Shown here piece after piece: positions 1-46,500 of a stretch of 58,511 nucleotides of DNA. Source of the stretch: Phycisphaerae bacterium (GTDB taxonomy: Bacteria; Planctomycetota; Phycisphaerae; UBA1845; Fen-1342). Location of the stretch: contig JASFQK010000042.1 of NCBI GenBank assembly GCA_050115495.1, positions 1 through 58,511 on the forward strand. Reading direction: 5' to 3'. The translations under genes were made by a program, and so were the position numbers. The notes below the pieces were generated by a model. It ran no database searches. It was not told where the DNA came from and worked only from the letters and a program-made list of their open reading frames with translations. Positions within the stretch are counted from its first letter, which is position 1; each line of letters opens with the position of its first letter.

Positions 1-79
1 GTTCGGGGTGTGGCTGGAGATCGGAGAGCAACGCCGTCAGGGCGAAGGCGTGCGGTTGGTGCGTGGTCGGTGTGGTCAT
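1..79 (-). CDS. 5' end of module gene B, copy 1 (HEPN/Abi-like protein); runs off the window edge
   Basis: The minus strand from ATG at 79 reads MTTPTTHQPHAFALTALLSDLQPHPE, matching FTLTALLHDLQPHPE of 42468..43166. The RBS context cgcagcagaggacgaacaccATG matches cgcagcaaaggacaaatacgATG in copy 2. Not in the ORF track because it is truncated. Confidence 0.85.
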   Translation of the reverse strand, partial: MTTPTTHQPHAFALTALLSDLQPHPE

Positions 80-160
80 GGTGTTCGTCCTCTGCTGCGA
101 TGAGCTTCTCCGGTTCGGCGACGGATTGGGCGGGCACGGCACGCCCTACTTGGGCTCGTC

Positions 161-706
161 CTAATCGTTCATGCGTGCCCACCACTTCTGCCACCACATC
201 GCCCGCGGGGCATCGTCGATCTCGGCCAGCTCGGCCTCGACAATCAGCTCGTCCAGGCATGCGCCGACCAGGCTCAACAACCCGTGTTTGACTGCCGCGT
301 GCCGCTCGACGTACGCGACCCACTTGTCCGGCAGTTCCTCCGGCGTGTGGTTCTCCCCGCCCGGCACTCGCTTCATGAAGCCGGCGGCTCCCAACCGCCG
401 CAGGCACTCGGCCAGCACGTCGAGGACGGTCTTGCGGTTCGCGTTCTTGACCCAGAAATACGGGTGGTCTTCATGATCGAGCCCGTCGGGGCCGGCGACG
501 TCGTAGATGATGGTTCGATAGCGAGGACCGCCGGGGACCTGCTGGAAGAGAGTGGCGGCCCGGAAGTAGACGCCCAGACGCAGCAGATCGCGTGCCACGT
601 GTGCCACCCAGAACTGCACCATGCTGGGCAGGTCCTCGGCATCCAAGACACGGGCGAAGCGCTGCTCGTTCATGCCGTTCATCGTGAACTCGTGGGAACG
701 AAACAT
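161..706 (-). CDS. Module gene A, copy 1: hypothetical protein (~181 aa), paralog of 41875..42471
   Basis: ATG at 706 preceded by AAAGGGG. Shares YF.A....Q(V/I)PG, L(D/N)VLA..L.RL, VPGG and GLL..V..CLD.L.V blocks with 41875..42471. The frame stays open upstream to 1021. Confidence 0.8.
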   Translation of the reverse strand: MFRSHEFTMNGMNEQRFARVLDAEDLPSMVQFWVAHVARDLLRLGVYFRAATLFQQVPGGPRYRTIIYDVAGPDGLDHEDHPYFWVKNANRKTVLDVLAECLRRLGAAGFMKRVPGGENHTPEELPDKWVAYVERHAAVKHGLLSLVGACLDELIVEAELAEIDDAPRAMWWQKWWARMND

Positions 707-841: not shown

Positions 842-1116
842 CCGCCCTGCATTGGCGCGCAGGGGTGGCGACGCCGTTGGGGACGGCGAAACGTCGAAGG
901 CTGATGGCACCAAAAGGAAACGGGCGCCACCCGATGCGCTAAAGGTCACGGGCAAACCGTCACGTCCGCTCCCGCAACCCCGCGCACCGGGTAGCGCCCG
1001 CATGATAAGCGCGGACACCAACCCGGGCGAGGCGGCCTTGGTCAGACTGGCACAACGATTAAGGTTGACGGCATGTCAACCAGCAACGTTGTGTTGACGG
1101 TTCGTACGCCAAGACA
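842..1116 (-). ncRNA. Conserved structured leader RNA, copy 1 (antisense-like domain 1116-1035; long hairpin 1000-921; U-tract 920-912)
   Basis: 842-1018 aligns without gaps to 41644-41820 (25 differences in 177 nt by hand count). Stems are kept by compensatory and G·U changes, and G·U pairs form only on this strand. Confidence 0.75.
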
Positions 1117-1149
1117 TCGCATTTATGCGCATATTTGCGACATTGTCAA
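1117..1149 (-). promoter_or_regulatory. Sigma70-like promoter (TTGACA at 1149-1144, -10 region ~1127-1121) overlapped by a 24-bp palindrome, a probable XRE operator
   Basis: Perfect -35 hexamer. TCGCA-tt-TATGCGCATA-tt-TGCGA at 1117-1140 lies across the spacer and -10. The predicted start falls at the 5' end of the leader RNA. Confidence 0.6.
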
Positions 1150-1221: not shown

Positions 1222-1500
1222 GTGCCTATCGATTGGTGGTCGAGATACGAAACGAGAATGCGTCGTGGCGAGTTTCGTCTCCTCAAGAAGGACGTGGCGG
1301 AAGCTGCCGGCGTCTCCTATTCGCAACTGAACCGCTGGATGAACGGGCACGGGGAACCCAGCATTTCACAGGCGGCCGCGATGGTACTGCTGGTCGACGC
1401 CAGCCTGGACGAGATCTTCCTTCCCGATGCGCGTGCGAAGCGACTCGCGCAGAGACGGGCTACCGACCGACGACGCACTGCCACTCGCCGGGATTCATAG
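1222..1500 (+). CDS. XRE-family helix-turn-helix transcriptional regulator
   Basis: KKDVAEAAGVSYSQLNRWMNGHGEPS is a typical HTH_3 motif; transcribed divergently from the leader/gene A unit. Confidence 0.85.
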   Translation: MPIDWWSRYETRMRRGEFRLLKKDVAEAAGVSYSQLNRWMNGHGEPSISQAAAMVLLVDASLDEIFLPDARAKRLAQRRATDRRRTATRRDS

Positions 1501-38658: not shown

Positions 38659-40503
38659 ATGTCCGCCGCATGTGCACCATCCGACTGGCCGCTGGCCCGC
38701 ATCCTCGACACCGTGCAGCGCACGTGGGGCTACAACACGCTGCGCCCGCTCCAGGAAGAGGCCATCCGTGCCGGCCTCGATCGCCGCGATTCACTCGTCG
38801 TACTCCCCACCGGCGGCGGAAAGTCGCTCTGCTACCAGGTGCCGCCGCTCATGACCGGCCGCACCGACGTCGTCGTCTCGCCGCTCATCTCGCTCATGCA
38901 CGACCAGGTCGCCGCCCTGCAGGCCTGCGACTATCCGGCGGCGGCCCTGCACAGCGGCCTGCCCATGCCGGCGGTGCGCGACATCGAGGCCCAGATCGCC
39001 GACGGCCGGTATCGCCTCATCTTCGTCGCGCCCGAGCGGCTGCTCCACCAGCACTTGCTCGACCTGCTCGAACGCGTGGACCTGCGGGCCGTCGTCATCG
39101 ACGAGGCCCACTGCATCAGCCACTGGGGCCACGACTTCCGCAAGGAATACCGCCAACTCGCCGTGCTGAAGCAGCGCTTCCCACAGGCCAGCGTCCACGC
39201 CTACACCGCCACGGCCACCGAGCGCGTCCGCGAGGACATCGTCGCCCAGCTTCGCCTCACCAACGCGGCGGTCCTCGTCGGGTACTTCGATCGGCCCAAC
39301 CTCGTCTACCGCGTGCTGCCACGGCTGGACCTCGACGCCCAGGTGCTCGAGGTCCTCAATCGCCACCGCAGCGAGGCGGCCATCGTCTATTGCATCAGTC
39401 GCCGCGACGCCGAGTCCATGGCCGCTCGTCTGCAAGCGGCGGGTCTGCGGGCCGCTTGCTACCACGCCGGCCTGCCCGCCGCCCAGCGTCACCTGACGCA
39501 GGACGCATTCGCCCGGGAGAAGGTCGACATCATCGCCGCCACGGTGGCCTTCGGCATGGGCATCGACCGTAGCGACGTGCGCTGCGTTATCCACGCCGGC
39601 ATGCCGAAGTCGGTCGAGCACTACCAGCAGGAGACCGGCCGCGCCGGACGCGACGGCCTGCCCGCCGAGTGCGTACTCTTCTACTCGGCGGCCGACAGCG
39701 ACAAGTGGACGCACCTCATCCAGCGCAGTGCCGCCGAGGCCGGCGCCCCGCCGGACGTCGCCTCCGCCGCCCTGGAACTGCTCGGGCAGATGCGGGCCTA
39801 TTGCACGGCGCCGATGTGCCGGCACCGCTTCCTCGTCGAGTACTTCGGGCAGACGTACGAGAAGGAGAACTGTGCGGCCTGCGAGCGCTGCCTGAACGAG
39901 GTCGAGACCGACCCGCAGGCGACCGAGCTCGCCCAGAAGATCCTCTCCTGCGTGGCCCGCGTGCAGCAGCGTTTCGGCGTCGGCCACGTCGTGAAGGTGC
40001 TCACCGGCGCCCGCGAGCGGTCGGTTCGCCAGTTCGGCCACGATCAACTGACCACGTACGGCCTGCTCGCCGACCTCGACCGCCAGGTGCTGACCAACCT
40101 CATCCACCAATTGGTCGATCAGGGCGTGCTCGACCGCACGCCCGGCGATCGGCCCATCCTGCGGCTCAACGATCTGTCGTGGCAGGTCCTTCGTGGCGAG
40201 CGCGACGTGCAGCTCGTCCGCCCGCGCGAACGCGCCGTCGTACCGACGCGCGTCGAGCGGCAGTCCTGGGCCGGCGTCAATCAAGCGCTTTTCGAGCGTT
40301 TGCGCGCTCTACGCCGCCAGATCGCGAGCGAACGCGGCCTGCCGGCGTACATGATCTTCAACGACGCCGCCCTCCGCGAAATGGCCCGCCGCCTCCCCCG
40401 CACGCCGGCCGAATTCCTCCTCGTCCCCGGCGTCGGCCAGGCCAAGCTCCGCGACTTCGGCGACCGCTTCCTGACCCACATCCGCGACCACGCGAAACCC
40501 TGA
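38659..40503 (+). CDS. recQ: ATP-dependent DNA helicase RecQ
   Basis: PTGGGKSLCYQ, DEAHCISHWGHDFR, ATVAFGMGID, YQQETGRAGRDG, Zn-binding Cys cluster, RQC and HRDC domains. Confidence 0.97.
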   Translation: MSAACAPSDWPLARILDTVQRTWGYNTLRPLQEEAIRAGLDRRDSLVVLPTGGGKSLCYQVPPLMTGRTDVVVSPLISLMHDQVAALQACDYPAAALHSGLPMPAVRDIEAQIADGRYRLIFVAPERLLHQHLLDLLERVDLRAVVIDEAHCISHWGHDFRKEYRQLAVLKQRFPQASVHAYTATATERVREDIVAQLRLTNAAVLVGYFDRPNLVYRVLPRLDLDAQVLEVLNRHRSEAAIVYCISRRDAESMAARLQAAGLRAACYHAGLPAAQRHLTQDAFAREKVDIIAATVAFGMGIDRSDVRCVIHAGMPKSVEHYQQETGRAGRDGLPAECVLFYSAADSDKWTHLIQRSAAEAGAPPDVASAALELLGQMRAYCTAPMCRHRFLVEYFGQTYEKENCAACERCLNEVETDPQATELAQKILSCVARVQQRFGVGHVVKVLTGARERSVRQFGHDQLTTYGLLADLDRQVLTNLIHQLVDQGVLDRTPGDRPILRLNDLSWQVLRGERDVQLVRPRERAVVPTRVERQSWAGVNQALFERLRALRRQIASERGLPAYMIFNDAALREMARRLPRTPAEFLLVPGVGQAKLRDFGDRFLTHIRDHAKP

Positions 40504-40627: not shown

Positions 40628-40957
40628 TCAAGTCAATTCGGAGAGAATACGAATCGCTTTGGCTCTGGTCTGCTCGTCGGCACCGTTCCAAAAATCAAGC
40701 AGGCGGGCATCGAGTTGGGAAACGCGTTCGCGTAACACCTTCGGATCAAAAATGAATAGTTCGACCGGGTCGCAGCCGAGGCCTTCGGCTAAGCGCCCGA
40801 TCGTATCGAGCGTCGGATTTCCCTCACCGCGTTCGATCTCGCCCACTCGTTGACCTACCATGCCACCGCCACAACGCTCGGCCAACGCGGTTTGCGACAG
40901 CCCGGCGCGCTTGCGCAGTTGTAAGAGTCGTTCGCCAAAGACTTTCGGGATGTTCAT
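40628..40957 (-). CDS. XRE-family HTH regulator (CI-like)
   Basis: FGERLLQLRKRAGLSQTALAE...IERGEGNPTLDTIGRLAEGLG. Confidence 0.88.
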   Translation of the reverse strand: MNIPKVFGERLLQLRKRAGLSQTALAERCGGGMVGQRVGEIERGEGNPTLDTIGRLAEGLGCDPVELFIFDPKVLRERVSQLDARLLDFWNGADEQTRAKAIRILSELT

Positions 40958-41023
40958 GTCATCACCGAGCGGATGCCCGCATTCGTTCGTGCGCGTCGAA
41001 GAAAGCATGGTAAACCGTGTGAA

Positions 41024-41095
41024 TGTTTCGCGATACACGCCTTGACGTGCTACCTAGGCCATGATACACTGCAAAGAGAGCAAATCGTGATACAT
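41024..41095 (+). promoter_or_regulatory. Strong sigma70-like promoter with three GATACA-containing operator-like sites
   Basis: TTGACG(41042)-N17-TACACT(41065) with a TGn extension; TGTTTCGCGATACA (41024), CCATGATACA and ATCGTGATACA. Confidence 0.55.
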
Positions 41096-41128
41096 GGCAC
41101 TGTCTGCCGTCTCGCCGCACGGCCCGCC

Positions 41129-41392
41129 CTACTTCCTCTGCGTGTGTTTCGCCTTCGACTTGGGCTTGGGCGATCCCTCGATTAGTTCAAGCAGGTCGCC
41201 GGGTGTAGTATCCAGGGCGATGCAGAGTTTCTCTATTAACTCCAGTGTCGCGTTGTAGTCATCACGGCTGCCGATCGTATGAAGCGTTTGCTTAGCGATG
41301 CCACTTCGCTGCGCGAGCTTCTCATATGTTAATCGTTCGCCGCTACGGCGACGGTACGCTTCCATTGCTTCTCGCAGCTTGATCGCGATCAT
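41129..41392 (-). CDS. Cro/C1-type HTH regulator (HTH_26-like)
   Basis: LTYEKLAQRSGIAKQTL...TLELIEKLCIALDTTPGDLLE; divergent from module copy 2. Confidence 0.88.
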   Translation of the reverse strand: MIAIKLREAMEAYRRRSGERLTYEKLAQRSGIAKQTLHTIGSRDDYNATLELIEKLCIALDTTPGDLLELIEGSPKPKSKAKHTQRK

Positions 41393-41440
41393 AACCTATA
41401 TTCGCGGAAGTAAAAAATGTCTACTTGATATACTTTTGTC

Positions 41441-41468
41441 TTGACAACGACGGAACGCAAGGTATTTT
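41441..41468 (+). promoter_or_regulatory. Sigma70-like promoter for module copy 2
   Basis: TTGACA(41441)-N16-TATTTT(41463) with an AT-rich upstream segment. Confidence 0.55.
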
Positions 41469-41543
41469 ATCCGATGAGGCACATAGCGCCCACCTGTCGA
41501 CACTTACCGGCGTCCCCGATGGACGCCAGTGAATAGAGTAGTC

Positions 41544-41820
41544 TGTCTTGGCAGTCAAACCGCCAAGCCAACGACGCGTTTAGTCAATCCTTGCAGCGTA
41601 CGTTGGCCCTTCAACCATGCCAAGGCACGCCTCGCCCGGGACAGTGTCCATGCTTATCATGCGGGCGCTGCCCGGTGCGCGGGGTCGTGTGGTTGGACCT
41701 GGCGGTTTGGCCGCGGCTCTTAGCGCATCGGGTGGCGCCCGTTTCCTTTTGGTGCCATCCGCTTTCGACGTTCCGCCGTCTCTAACGGCGTCGCCACCCG
41801 TGCGCGCGGATGTAGGGCGG
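41544..41820 (+). ncRNA. Conserved structured leader RNA, copy 2 (antisense-like domain 41544-41627; long hairpin 41662-41741; U-tract 41742-41750)
   Basis: Homologous to 842-1116 (minus). Closing stem TGTCTTGGCA/TGCCAAGGCA and apical stem GCCAACG/CGTTGGC (CACAACG/CGTTGTG in copy 1). Confidence 0.75.
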
Positions 41821-41874
41821 GTAGGCCACGCCCGTCGGACGGACTACAGCCTCTTTCCGACAACGGAGAGGACG

Positions 41875-42471
41875 ATGCTGCAGCCCATCATCACGCACGA
41901 GGACGATCGGACGGCGTACATCGGCGACCAGGTCCGCTTCACCGATCGACTCACCGACGTCTTCCGCTGCCGCATGCAGCAGCTCGAAGACATTCACCGC
42001 TGGCTCGCCGGCTACTTCCAGGCCGTCGGCATCCTGCTCCAAATCCCCGGCGCCGCCGACTACCACCACCAGGACTACGCCAGCGACGACGACCTCTGGG
42101 ATCTCATCTGGAACCCCGACCCCGACAGCACGCTCAACGTTCTCGCCGCCACGCTCGAACGCCTCGACGCTGACGAACTCCTGGCACAGGTTCCCGGCGG
42201 CGACGGCTTCAAACGCCGCCCGCTGCCGGTCGAGGCCCGCGTTCACCTCGCTGAACGCGACCGCCTGGGTCTGCTCAACGTCGTCGCCGATTGTCTGGAC
42301 CGCCTGTTGGTCGCGCCGCATATCCCCGGCGAAGCGGAAGCCCGCGGCCTGACGACCGAGGACGACCCGCAGCCCACAGACCGAACCAAGCCCGCCCAAT
42401 CCCGCGCACCACGCCGGACGCGTCCTGCTCGCCAAAGCGACGTCCGTCGCAGCAAAGGACAAATACGATGA
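41875..42471 (+). CDS. Module gene A, copy 2: hypothetical protein, paralog of 161..706
   Basis: GGAGAGGA RBS; shares motif blocks with copy 1; ATGA overlap with gene B. Confidence 0.8.
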   Translation: MLQPIITHEDDRTAYIGDQVRFTDRLTDVFRCRMQQLEDIHRWLAGYFQAVGILLQIPGAADYHHQDYASDDDLWDLIWNPDPDSTLNVLAATLERLDADELLAQVPGGDGFKRRPLPVEARVHLAERDRLGLLNVVADCLDRLLVAPHIPGEAEARGLTTEDDPQPTDRTKPAQSRAPRRTRPARQSDVRRSKGQIR

Positions 42472-43166
42472 CAACCAGTCGCAACGACGAAAACAACGTA
42501 GGGCGAGCCGTGCCCGCCAGTGGTAGCACGCCGGAAACGCCCCAAGCCGCGAGCATGGCCCGCCCTGCACAGACCGACACACGCCCCTTCACCCTGACGG
42601 CGTTGCTCCACGACCTCCAGCCGCACCCCGAACTCGACCTGCGAACGATGGCCTACCATCTCCACCAATCCGACGCCACCGCCGCCGACGGCTACGGACA
42701 CGCCGCCATCAACGAGGCCCGTTCCGCTCTCGAAGCCCTCATCGTCAGCATCGCCTGCACCGTCCGCCACGACGTGACCGATAGCACCAGTCTTAGCCTC
42801 CGCGAGCGCATCCAGAGCGGCAACACGTTTCGCACGCACCGCCGCTGCTTGATGGACGCTGGCTTCATCGACATCGACGAAAACGATCTCCTGCAATACG
42901 TCTACAGCATGGCCAGCGCCAGGGGCAGCCATTACGGCGTAACGGACGACGCCTGGACCCGCTTAGCTCGGCGAATCGTCTTCCTCGTCGGCCAGCACTT
43001 CACGCAGCGTTACACGATCTGGAAGCGAAACGGCCGCCAACCGCCACCACACCCCGCCAATCACCCCCAGCCAGCGCCACGCTCCTGGCTCCTGCGCCTC
43101 CTCGCCACCATCCTGCCCCGGCAAGGAGATACCCCGACTTCCCCCGCCTCTGCCAGGAAACCGTAG
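42468..43166 (+). CDS. Module gene B, copy 2: putative HEPN/Abi_C-like protein
   Basis: AAINEARSALEALIVSI helix and YSMASARGSHYG (degenerate Rx4H). The start is supported by the RBS context conserved with copy 1. Confidence 0.7.
   Translation: MTTSRNDENNVGRAVPASGSTPETPQAASMARPAQTDTRPFTLTALLHDLQPHPELDLRTMAYHLHQSDATAADGYGHAAINEARSALEALIVSIACTVRHDVTDSTSLSLRERIQSGNTFRTHRRCLMDAGFIDIDENDLLQYVYSMASARGSHYGVTDDAWTRLARRIVFLVGQHFTQRYTIWKRNGRQPPPHPANHPQPAPRSWLLRLLATILPRQGDTPTSPASARKP
42498..42568. repeat. Inverted REP doublet inside the 5' end of gene B
   Basis: GTAGGGCGAGCCGTGCCCGCC (42498) and inverted GCAGGGCGGGCCATGCTCGC (ending 42568). Same family as 129-149, 783-850, 1512-1576, 41812, 43182 and 51638. 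Confidence 0.7.
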
Positions 43167-43540
43167 TTCCCCCCCGAATGCGCAGGGCGGGCCGTATCCC
43201 CAACCCGCCAATGCCCGCCCCCATTTCATCCAACTTCCAACAGAACCCACCGGAACGCGCCAATTCCTGTCAATCATCCCCGCCCTTTACTCGCCGCCGA
43301 CGCCTCGTCGACTGTGGCGACAGTCCGATCATGATTTCCGCCACCCCGAGCGCCTCGGCCGCCCCTCAGCATTGTACGGCCGCCTTCGCCGGCAGCGTTC
43401 CCCGGTGGCCGACATTCATCCACGTTCTCCTTTCTCGCACAGCGCCGCTCTTGATCCTCTGACATGGTGCGCGAATCCACCCGCCGCGGCGGCGGCGGCC
43501 GTTGTCGGCCGCCGCCGCTCGCTCGCCTTCCCATGGTCGC

Positions 43541-46500
43541 CTACTTTTCTGCGTCCGCCCTCCGGCGCAGGACGCCCTCCGGCCCGAGCCCGGGCATGGG
43601 AGACTCGGGACGCTCGCCGTCGGCGAAGGCCTGCACATCCAGCGCGTCCACGACCCCGTCGTTCGTCAGGTCCGCCACCGCCAGGTGCGGCAGGCCCAGC
43701 GCTCGGAGCTCGGCGACTGTGATCGAGCAGCGCGGCTCCGCCGCCGGGGGCAGTTCGCAGCAGGCCGCATCGCCGACCATGAAGTAATTCGCATCAATGA
43801 AGGCGTAGTCCTCCAGATCCACGTATCCGCTGGCATCCATATCCGCGTGTGGGAACGAGACGCCGCACGGCGTGTCCGGGTCGCCAGACCAGTCCCACTC
43901 GGCGACGAACACGCCGAAGTCCAGAATGTCCACGATGTTGTCGTTGTACAGGTCCGCCTGGAAAAGCACGCTGGCCGGAGCGGTGAGTTCGACGGCGTAC
44001 TGCGTGCCCGCGATCGTCGGCTCCGCCTGGACCCTCAGCGTGTGCAGGTCATCCTCGCCGCTCACGCAATCGTAGCCGGTCGGCGAGCAGGGCAGGTCGG
44101 TGAGCAGTATGCTCGCCACACTGTTGCCAGCGGCGTTGGCCGGGAACGTCACGTTCGTCTCCAGTTCAGCCATCGGCCCATGCTGCACGCAGCCGTAGAA
44201 GCGGAACGTGAAGCAGCGCACCACCGTATTCTGGACCGGACCCTGCAACTCGATCGTGATGTTCACGTCGTTGTACGGCAGCACGGTGACGGACTGCTCG
44301 GCGAACGCGACGTTGTCGCACTCATCGATGGCCACCCACAAGATCATGGTCGTGCCCGCCGGATATGGATCGGTCAGCGCCAGGCCGTCGTTGCGCGAGC
44401 ACTCAATCTCGACCGGCCCGCCGCAGTTGTCGACGCCGGTCGCCGTGCCGGGGTCGATCATCGCGGAACACCCGCCGGCGTCGGCGTTCACCGTGATGCC
44501 CGGCGGAGGCGTGAGCACCGGCGGCGTGCTGTCCAGCGTGACCGTGGGCAGGTCCACGAGCTGATCGACGTAGTACGCCGTGCCGCTCGACGTGGTCAGG
44601 CGGGTCTCGAACGGCGGTAGCGGTCGGAAGCTCAGCAGGGCCTCTGCGTTGCAGATCTCGGCCGTCGCGGTAAAGTGCAGGACGGCCAATCGGTGAGAGC
44701 CCGTAGCGCTGTCGTTGAAATCCGACACACCCACGCTGTATTCGATCAACCCCTCTTCCGGCGTACACTGCGGGTTGGTCTGCTCCTGCGTGCTGCACTC
44801 GTGGACCTGACGCGTGAAGGGCTCATCACCCGGCGTAATCGCCGCCGCCCCCGCGTGCGCCGTGCTGCCCAGTACGAACTCCGCGTCGTATTGCAGCAGG
44901 AACTGCCCGCCGACGATGTCCTCCGGCACATCGCGCATCCACACCTCGATCGTGACCTCGTCGCCGATCTGATAGCAGGTTTGGTCCGGTTCGAGCGCAA
45001 GTTTCGATGGCGGCGGCGCTGCCGCCAGTGCCATACGGTAGACCCATCCGTTGTCCGACGCGTCGCGAAACGTGCCGATGTACAGCGTGTCGTCGTGGAC
45101 GTGAAACGCGCTGGCAACGGGATCTTCCAGCTCGACCACCCGCTCCCAAGTCACCCCGAGGTCGTTGGAGCGGTAGATGCCACGCGACGGGTCGCCCGCC
45201 TGCTGGCCGTAGGCATATATGTACCCGCCGTGCACCACAGGTTTCGGCGCATACCTACTGAGCGGATAAGACGCGACCGTCGTCCATTCCGCTATGGCAT
45301 CGTCCCAACGGTACACATATCGGTTGCTTGGGGGCTGGCACTCCTCCGTGAACGCAAGGAGGCTATCGCCCACAGCCAGAAGCCAGTTGGCGCCGTCGCA
45401 CGACGGTATGCCGACAGTCGGGGTGTAACTGACTCCGTCGTCAGAGACGTACACGGCCGTGGTCCCCTCACAGCCCCAACAGGGAATCAGTCCTAGACCC
45501 ACGAACAACCGCCCCTGATAGACCGTGAGGCAGTCAACGACCGTGCGGGGACGCGGAAAGCTGTGGATGTGCTCCCAGTCGTTTGGGCCACCCCCGCCAA
45601 GCCAACGGTAAATCTCGGCAGGGTGGGGGTCATAGCCGGTTCCTGCATACACGCTGCCCTGAAACTCTACGAACGAGAACGTAGAGTTTGGTGGATGGGT
45701 ACTATGCGTGGCGGGTCGCCAGGTCTCGCCGCCGTCAAAGGACACGTACGGCAGCTTCGCAAGGCACCAGCCGCCGCCGGTGAACAACGTGCCATCAGAA
45801 GCTTCGAAAACCGAAGCCCGTACACACTGAATAAGCGAAAGAGATTGCTTGAGCACCGCACTGATGGCCTTACCCGTCTCCGGGTCGAGCGTCACCTTCC
45901 ATGCCGACGCGGGCGTGCCCCCACCGCAGTGCGCCCCCACATTCTGCGTTACGAGGACGATCTCGTTCGGTTGCGCGTCACGCACCTGAAGGGCATCCAC
46001 GAAGTCGACCGTGACGCCGCCCGTCGGCGGGAGCTCGGCCAGCAGCTCAAGCTGAAACGGGACCGGCGCCTCTGTGAACCGGTCCGAAAAGTCCCACTTG
46101 CCGTAGTCCCACACCTTTATGTTGTCAATCACGAACGCCGGCGTGCCGTCGTCGAAACCTTCTCCTTTGCCGATCGTGTGCCGATTACCCACGTCCGGCG
46201 TGTCGCCCCACGCATTGCTTGTGTTGGCGCCACAGACAACGCCGTCGATATATACCCGTACACACTCGCCGGAGCCGCCGATGCCGACCTTGTCCCACAC
46301 GATAGCGAGATGATGCCACTCACCCGGGTGGAAGATGCCGTCCACATCCGGAATCTGAACCTGTACCAGCGAGCCGAAGTTCACCTCCGCGTACAGCGTG
46401 TAAAGCGTTCCCGTGGCGCCATCGCCGATCCAGTAGTGCACGTGTCCACCGAGCGTTGGGTCGTAGCCTTCTTAATACACACCATCCAGCATGCTGAAGA

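Follow-up and report, generated by a model that had tools for sequence, protein, structure and literature searches.

A dispersed two-gene cassette of a Phycisphaerae bacterium with a copy-specific RNA guide/loop code and a predicted two-state leader

The RNA-based immunity codes known so far come from a few phages and plasmids of enterobacteria, and their handful of specificities has been worked out one at a time. In naive cells, seqA of the P4 leader pairs in cis. In P4 immunity, the CI RNA is cut from the operon leader and pairs with seqA and seqC of that leader, which causes premature termination downstream (PMC4825925). The C4 RNA of P1 and P7 (RF01695) is about 77 nucleotides (nt) long and has two single-stranded specificity elements, in which few changes lead to heteroimmunity; 21 dispersed copies occur in Acinetobacter baumannii (PMC5320573, PMC12197685, PMC2864571). 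IsrK of prophage Gifsy-1 is made as short and long transcripts from one promoter with two folds, and the short RNA, which competes with its own sequence, activates translation (PMC4825925). AbiV, AbiF and AbiJ/Abi_C represent HEPN abortive infection (Abi) and type III toxin-antitoxin systems (PMC13064643). Here we describe a cassette on contig JASFQK010000042.1 of a Phycisphaerae bacterium (assembly GCA_050115495.1, genome G000), the 58,511 nt of which were analysed as one window. The cassette is about 2 kb long and consists of a divergent regulator, a sigma70 promoter, a structured leader RNA and two genes, A and B. Nearly every leader carries a bipartite guide that matches a target loop further downstream in the same leader, and the pairing is specific to the copy.

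There are two copies of the cassette in the window, copy 1 at positions 1-1500 on the minus strand and copy 2 at 41129-43166 on the plus strand. An initial annotation had described the same architecture at both places, and both are present as claimed. It had also rightly noted that the leader (85.6% identity over 202 nt between the two copies) is better conserved than the gene A proteins (34% over 114 aligned amino acids), that the N-termini of the B proteins match, that the divergent regulators are unlike (Pfam HTH_26 at 41129-41392, HTH_3 at 1222-1500), and that both window copies are free of adjacent integrase, transposase and phage genes. Its interpretation is partly supported. What it called a duplicated module is not a mere duplication, but is dispersed as a family of 15 leader copies in the genome. 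The 177-nt block that it picked out is conserved, but the stretch of the leader that carries most information (41544-41627) precedes it. RNA control of the unit, as proposed, is supported; the main feature, a copy-specific guide/target code combined with a two-state fold, was missing from that description.

In copy 2 all leader elements lie on the plus strand. Downstream of the promoter and a variable 5' part comes the guide unit (41544-41627), in which stem P1 (41544-41553 with 41618-41627, supported by compensatory pairs) encloses the guide segment X (12 nt, 41554-41565), a variable hairpin P2 (41567-41607) and the guide segment Y (8 nt, 41610-41617). The unit is 62-87 nt long in 35 copies, and is followed by region 2, region 3, an inner stem with a loop of 21-24 nt, region 4 and a U-tract. 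Region 3 has two possible partners. Pairing with region 2 gives a putative antiterminator hairpin, 2:3 (regions 2 and 3 at 41630-41684; mean -37 kcal/mol), and pairing with region 4 gives a terminator fold, 3:4 (41661-41750; -64 kcal/mol), with a 20-bp stem (41661-41680 with 41723-41742), the inner stem, the target loop and the U-tract (41742-41750). The target loop (41690-41711) consists of Y' (41690-41697) and X' (41700-41711), which are complementary to the Y and X of the same copy. At least 5 U are found in the 8 nt after the stem in 52 of 56 leaders, and a pattern search placed a promoter-like site at 37 of the 56. Among the 720 cells of the 3:4 stem, 583 are Watson-Crick pairs, 136 G-U and a single one A-C; because G-U is tolerated and A-C is not, the plus strand is the structured strand. 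In hairpin 2:3, 97.7% of the cells are paired and the loop is conserved in sequence.

The leader has no Rfam match, and searches for C4-type RNA gave no match up to E 5 in the window (41000-43600) or up to E 1 at five other loci. Three other explanations of the leader were rejected. A coding extension of A does not keep its frame, which agrees with that of A in 4 of 15 copies, a metabolite riboswitch would be at odds with junction nucleotides that are by eye not conserved, and DNA inversion between X and X' left no inverted copy in the alignments.

The guide and the loop constitute a code. Among 36 of 38 leaders (two with a missing end were left out), the own loop ranks first in 32, with a cognate X plus Y pairing of -33.7 versus -19.2 kcal/mol for non-cognate pairs (permutation z -17.8). 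The helices have mean lengths of 12.1 and 7.4 bp with the own loop versus 7.7 and 4.5 bp with foreign loops. Held-out leaders, which had no part in model building, gave the same result, with the own loop first in 19 of 19 (one of the 20 is truncated and was left out). In a sequence-only alignment of 35 leaders, compensatory change is seen at 10 of 12 pairs of X, 9 of 9 of Y and 7 of 9 of P1. None of 500 shuffles, a control that does not remove kinship, scored as high, and the counts are also above those of all slid controls. Y is only 65% paired in this alignment because its register shifts.

The 56 loops represent 42 code types, some of them identical across records. In three high-copy genomes, the nearest loop is located in another genome for 12 of 15, 8 of 9 and 10 of 10 copies, whereas the nearest match of the tail (40 nt past the terminator) is in the same genome for 12 of 14, 7 of 9 and 9 of 10. 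Thus, copies within a genome have a backbone of their own in common, but their codes differ. Guide and loop do not match in three leaders: window copy 1 (its own loop ranks 6th of 14 within the genome), the copy on contig C32, and L042. The loop of window copy 1 matches the guide of L122 best, and the C32 guide matches two loops, those of L117 and L123. As L122, L117 and L123 belong to other genomes, recombination within the constant stretch that separates guide from loop is indicated.

Folding calculations predict two mutually exclusive states that are on average equally stable. With P1 open, a nested structure free of pseudoknots can hold X:X', the variable hairpin, Y:Y' and 2:3 together, and the terminator is excluded (ON fold); an obligate pseudoknot was considered and rejected, since the ON fold is nested once P1 has opened. 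The nested ON fold is the computed minimum-energy fold of 41476-41750 (-131 kcal/mol, z -5.3). When constrained, the ON fold and the terminator (OFF) fold have mean energies of -102.6 and -102.6 kcal/mol (54 of 55 leaders, with window copy 2 left out). For a transcript that ends just past X', the combination of X:X' and 2:3 is predicted in 49 of 54 leaders. With a foreign guide, ON minus OFF rises from +1.3 to +5.8, and masking of the guide or the loop yields the terminator in 35 of 35 leaders, compared with 26 of 35 when unmasked. On the basis of these folds, cis pairing is predicted to favour read-through, and removal of the guide or the loop to favour termination. Once the inner stem has formed, region 4 may displace region 2 in a stepwise, downhill manner, as calculated for four leaders.

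The transcript of leader, A and B would start from a near-consensus sigma70-like promoter (41441-41468, plus strand; 10 of 12 matches). Divergent from it lies the usual cassette regulator, XRE-2, of 87 amino acids (41129-41392, minus strand; Pfam HTH_26, E 1.5e-10). XRE-2 has 11 further homologues in the genome, and the recognition helix differs among the copies. Just upstream of the -35 element there is a variable, operator-like region, and similarity of recognition helices tracks similarity of this upstream sequence (22 loci, Mantel r 0.26, P 0.0006, with shared ancestry not removed). The segment covered by the initial annotation starts at 40628; within it, 40628-40957 is a separate second XRE gene with its own promoter. 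This XRE-1 (109 amino acids, minus strand; Pfam HTH_31/HTH_3) is a regulator of the leaderless cassette type, stacked outside the main regulator, and shares 82% identity with the regulator that lies immediately upstream of A in the leaderless loci L018/L062. Its sigma70-like promoter (41042-41070, plus strand; 9 of 12 matches) resembles by eye the L018 promoter, and 40628-41070 constitutes the stacked regulator unit. Elsewhere, other regulators (C-protein-like, or ribbon-helix-helix-like by eye) replace XRE-2 or stack beside it. At L095:758-1018, L088:2757-3059, L044:3241-3528 and L042:3554-3829, XRE-2 is replaced by a family of 87-101 amino acids, which has no Pfam or NCBIfam match and is ribbon-helix-helix-like by eye.

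Gene A (41875-42471, plus strand) encodes a helical protein of 198 amino acids with two internal repeats, and occurs in long, short and cysteine-rich forms. Gene B (42468-43166, plus strand), the start of which overlaps the stop of A, encodes 232 amino acids with a predicted HEPN fold (core 42588-43043). Judged from the ratio of nonsynonymous to synonymous substitution rates (0.15-0.35 for A, 0.03-0.39 for B), both genes are under purifying selection. Their structures were predicted with local confidence (pLDDT) of 90 for A and 84 for B. Fold searches with A returned at best Z 5.6, for cytokine-like bundles, which is uninformative, and the ESM Atlas gave no usable match. HEPN-MNT toxin-antitoxin systems have a nucleotidyltransferase as partner gene; the best rows of the fold searches with A contain none, which does not exclude one, and A has no Pfam match. 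For B, the top VIA-align rows are HEPN proteins (2hsb: Z 9.7, root-mean-square deviation 4.3, 117 aligned residues; Z values middling for helical bundles), Foldseek places HEPN first at E 0.22, and comparison with Abi_C clusters gives 0.87-0.90. The description of B as HEPN/Abi-like is borne out by this fold and by its vicinity to the Abi_C clusters. A histidine within an S-x-K/R-G-S-H motif is invariant in 58 of 58 B sequences. The A and B profiles are not related to each other, and the predicted A+B complex scored 0.01, which speaks neither for nor against an interaction. Longer fused forms of B were absent among 8000 candidates, which is weak evidence. In G000, contig C60 (L081:1090-2907) carries a leaderless A followed by a B of 388 amino acids that lacks the histidine and has a cysteine-rich segment and a C-terminal stretch resembling, by eye, a short A.

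Neither A nor B has a match in Pfam, PADLOC or PHROGs. Together with the lack of an Rfam match for the leader, this supports the earlier description of a dispersed unit of two genes that is controlled by repressor and RNA and belongs to no named family.

The distribution of the cassette is patchy, with bursts. BLAST found no leader in 40 relatives; searches with the RNA model detected it in 1 of 151 genomes from the phylum and in 4 of 151 from the order (G000 included in both). B occurs in 5 of 401 genomes of the class. Of 279 genomes of the order, 16 have A; none of 6 congeners does. Within the order, three genomes have at least 11-12 matches of A each, and the others 1-2; G568 and G752 hold 10 full-length leaders each. 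Outside G000, a strong leader match lies upstream of A in 25 of 50 loci found via B (two of these are one locus), and the rest are cut short or truly leaderless. The initial annotation had named the occurrence of A and B without the leader or the regulator as evidence against its own interpretation, and such cases are seen in part: leaderless A-B pairs (L016/L035, L018/L062 and L041) keep regulator and promoter, L049 has half a leader, and A also occurs without B. The leader is therefore an optional control layer. Two loci are from a record titled Dehalococcoidia, by transfer or mis-binning. Viral contigs contained no relative of B, and four 20-mer matches there were due to chance; phage and plasmid records contained no leader match. 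Loci L048 and L050 are alike in regulator, leader, B and flanks, with a long A in one and a short A in the other, as after a cassette swap between strains.

We lean towards the interpretation that this is a horizontally spread cassette with autogenous RNA immunity resembling that of P4 CI and P1 C4. It is a member of neither family. The element of about 2 kb, which has no mobility gene of its own, would hold A and B under two private locks, a divergent small repressor acting on an operator beside the sigma70 promoter and the two-state leader RNA. In the growing transcript, according to the computed folds, X and Y would pair with their own loop and clamp hairpin 2:3, so that the terminator could not form and A-B would be read. 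If the guide or the loop were occupied by an RNA of the same code that is already in the cell, either the 62-87 nt guide unit or a terminated leader, 3:4 would form before the U-tract and transcription would stop. On arrival in a cell without its code, a copy would thus express A-B for a short time before shutting itself off, while in a cell that already has its code it would be off from the outset. Such an immunity or incompatibility code would explain why each genome holds a set of differing codes. B is a HEPN protein of uncertain activity and A would be its partner; we tentatively suggest that they serve establishment or persistence of the cassette. We further speculate, although we hold it less likely than not, that the cassette is a new kind of minimal mobile element that spreads in bursts without transposase, integrase or phage genes. 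An RNA incompatibility code of at least 42 types and a matching repressor code would then permit one active copy per code and genome, new codes would escape silencing, and A, together with the non-canonical HEPN protein B, would establish or move the element.

Several observations weigh against this interpretation. The two states, ON and OFF, come from energy modelling and not from measurement. The complete leader, at equilibrium, prefers the terminator in 26 of 35 copies, so that read-through would need kinetic trapping in most of them, and window copy 2 is ON when folded from 41476 and OFF when folded from 41544. Hairpin 2:3 displays no covariation beyond shuffles, as it is too invariant to show any. 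The scarcity of shared codes within genomes is not significant on its own (0 of 187 versus 12 of 1353 pairs, permutation P 0.21; P 0.07-0.35 at other cut-offs), and there are more sequences outside than inside a genome, which favours outside neighbours. The code is dispensable, since mismatched and leaderless copies exist. Neither a mobility gene nor common ends nor an empty site came to light for the cassette: the congeners, with about 72% identity and a rearrangement after recQ, show no junction, and the genus of G661 offered no empty site. Finally, Rx4-6H is the catalytic motif of HEPN RNase toxins, and B has no catalytic arginine; positions -5 to -7 from the histidine are S, A and V/I, and K or R is found only at -3. 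The arginine is also absent from distant, longer relatives of B.

Covariation alone fits a cis-only structure. The leader could be an attenuator in which a protein (A, B or a host factor at the 2:3 loop), polymerase speed or stress chooses the fold without any RNA acting in trans, while neutral compensatory drift and recombination would account for the variation of guide and loop. We take this possibility seriously, although we consider it the less probable one. It satisfies the covariation and the folding results entirely in cis, gives a role to the conserved 2:3 loop, and is at ease with a within-genome depletion of shared codes that is not significant alone. However, the codes are old and common to several genomes, while the adjacent tail has been homogenised within genomes. 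Moreover, P1, open in the predicted ON fold, is kept by compensatory change and presents X and Y as a small, separate RNA of C4/CI size. If an RNA does act in trans, it might also activate, as IsrK does: guide RNA that has accumulated would open the apical hairpin of new transcripts and turn A-B on above a threshold. An RNA from the same locus that activates its own long transcript has been described (PMC4825925), and the target loop tends to pair with itself, more stably than shuffles in 27 of 36 leaders (mean z -0.7). Yet the loop-masked fold is the terminator in 35 of 35 leaders, because a trans guide does not clamp 2:3, and activation seems very unlikely to us.

The two remaining alternatives concern the cassette rather than its RNA. 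It could be kept by the host for defence or stress, with B as an abortive-infection effector that repressor and attenuator hold back until phage attack or DNA damage; copies would gather in defence-rich spots by helping the host, which is compatible with either RNA mechanism. The HEPN fold with its Abi_C-like neighbours and the purifying selection agree with this, as do defence-type genes near 8 of 30 outside loci (DarT, OLD/Gabija-like, Hma, CapP, SIR2, ThsB-like TIR, PD-T7-1, PDC-M19A) and AbiTii or DUF4062-TPR genes beside some copies in G000. However, the neighbour scan used 43 pre-picked proteins and no background control, neighbours differ from site to site and are mostly housekeeping genes, none of the 6 congeners has kept the cassette, and A and B lack a PADLOC match and B the motif arginine; we regard this explanation as unlikely. 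The other alternative is that the hairpins act as single-stranded DNA. REPINs have GTAG hairpins at both ends and are moved by a Y1 transposase (RAYT), and the cassette could similarly be cargo bounded by repetitive extragenic palindromes (REPs) of a RAYT/IS200-type transposase, with the leader as recognition structure. In G000, GTAG hairpins flank and punctuate most copies at their ends and joints, the breakpoints of mosaic parts fall at REPs, GTAG repeats number in the hundreds (several families of 20-115 exact copies), and there are 6 Y1 transposase matches, two of them RAYT-like by eye. But Y1 transposases, present in 4 of 5 other hosts, also occur in 6 of 14 control genomes. At outside loci, 35 B ends and 17 XRE ends mostly lack GTAG hairpins, so that REP-bounded transposition was rejected as a general rule. 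In addition, promoter, polarity and U-tract indicate a transcript, and the copy-specific pairing of the guide is left unexplained. A role as transposase substrate appears very improbable.

In copy 2, a GTAG-type REP remnant lies at 41120-41132 (minus strand) and provides the TAG stop codon of XRE-2, an arrangement found in several other G000 copies. On the plus strand, a REP-like GTAG hairpin separates leader and A (41812-41835), a REP lies in the 5' part of B (42498-42518), and a degenerate REP follows just after B (43182-43199). REP doublets with a degenerate 2:3 hairpin alone stand between leader and A at L068:1480-1810 (twice in tandem), L066:640-850 and L060:200-388. At outside loci, the spacer between leader and gene A accumulates a host-specific heptamer and short palindromic repeats. 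On contig C51 of G000 (119-2214, L080), the unit of regulator, promoter and leader is tandemly duplicated with a REP doublet in between, and the outer leader, which lacks the 3' strand of P1, controls no gene. IS200-like Y1 transposases lie between GTAG hairpins at L073, L074 and L076, and RAYT-like ones are found at L077 and L078. The 14-kb contig C65 of G000 (L079) is rich in the REP type of the cassette and carries an XRE-2-like gene, a second XRE gene, a DNA methylase fragment and a HARE-HTH gene, with no leader.

Copy 1 is broken by a contig end. Window positions 1-127 overlap exactly with the start of contig C23, so that only the start of its gene B (1-79, minus strand) is in the window and B goes on in C23. 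Gene A of copy 1 (161-706, minus strand) encodes 181 amino acids. Its promoter, with the -35 element at 1149-1144, and its leader at 1116-912 (together 912-1149, minus strand) precede A; the leader is the mismatched one described above and is probably recombinant. Its regulator (1222-1500, plus strand; Pfam HTH_3) is unrelated to XRE-2 and has a close homologue adjoining a cassette in L031/L121. Across G000, the N-terminal half of B has matches at 10 places and the C-terminal half at 17, two of them weak, and 16 contig ends lie within 1.5 kb of a cassette gene. Copy 2 is flanked by recQ (38659-40503, plus strand), after which congeners carry other genes, and by a probably secreted protein of 966 amino acids (43541-46441, minus strand). 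No integrase or phage gene was found beside the copies, and transposases are near 2 of 30 outside loci. A family of 220 amino acids occurs beside the cassette, on either side, at L036:826-1491, L039:762-1490, L050:4490-5278, L053:1974-2657 and L158:4416-5078; it is 74-88% identical among L036, L039, L050 and L053, and may be co-travelling cargo.

The cassette offers dozens of natural guide/target pairs on one constant scaffold, 10-15 of them in one chromosome and with states predicted to be balanced. The diversification of codes, and the limit that they may set to the copy number of a selfish element, thereby become directly testable. One unlisted RNA family and two unnamed protein families are added to those of Planctomycetota, and the question is raised how a 2-kb cassette without a mobility gene reaches 15 sites. 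The leaders also offer candidate orthogonal switches for trial in E. coli, and if the cassette is the minimal mobile element considered above, nature would have supplied in them a library of orthogonal transcription switches that act in trans under sigma70 promoters.

The literature that we searched, which leaves out most subscription papers and bioRxiv supplements, contains no description of the cassette. As in P4 CI, a leader-derived RNA would meet complementary sites in the same leader and control termination, although here this is predicted from folds. Unlike in P4, there is no sequence or Rfam match; one bipartite guide faces one target loop, whereas P4 has sites on both sides; the target is the loop of a long terminator of the intrinsic type; integrase and P4 genes are lacking; and 10-15 codes coexist per genome. 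Like C4, the leader has two variable single-stranded elements, X and Y, which covary with its own loop, and many copies per genome. C4 is processed by RNase P to about 77 nt, and the guide unit has 62-87 nt. However, C4 folds into P1-P3 with two inner hairpins, whereas the guide unit has P1 and one hairpin, with no match to RF01695. C4 blocks a ribosome-binding site, whereas the target described here (41690-41711) lies in a terminator loop about 165 nt upstream of that site (41865). Nor is there an icd or antirepressor gene, A and B being without PHROGs match. IsrK likewise has alternative folds, and short and long transcripts from one promoter, the short RNA competing with its own sequence in the long one, would be common to both, but the effect computed here is on termination and points to repression. 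As with AbiV and AbiF, a HEPN-fold protein is encoded downstream of a conserved RNA; in contrast to them, gene A lies between, the RNA is optional and pairs with itself, the motif arginine is missing, and PADLOC and Pfam give no match. In type III toxin-antitoxin systems such as AbiV and AbiF, the toxin gene is always accompanied by its RNA antitoxin; because the RNA is optional here, the cassette is not such a system. With REPIN/RAYT systems it shares, in G000, GTAG hairpins at ends and joints and RAYT-like genes in the genome, but its ends are not conserved in other genomes and it carries 2 kb of protein-coding cargo. The leader and the cassette are thus a new RNA family and a new cassette, a variant of antisense-controlled immunity.

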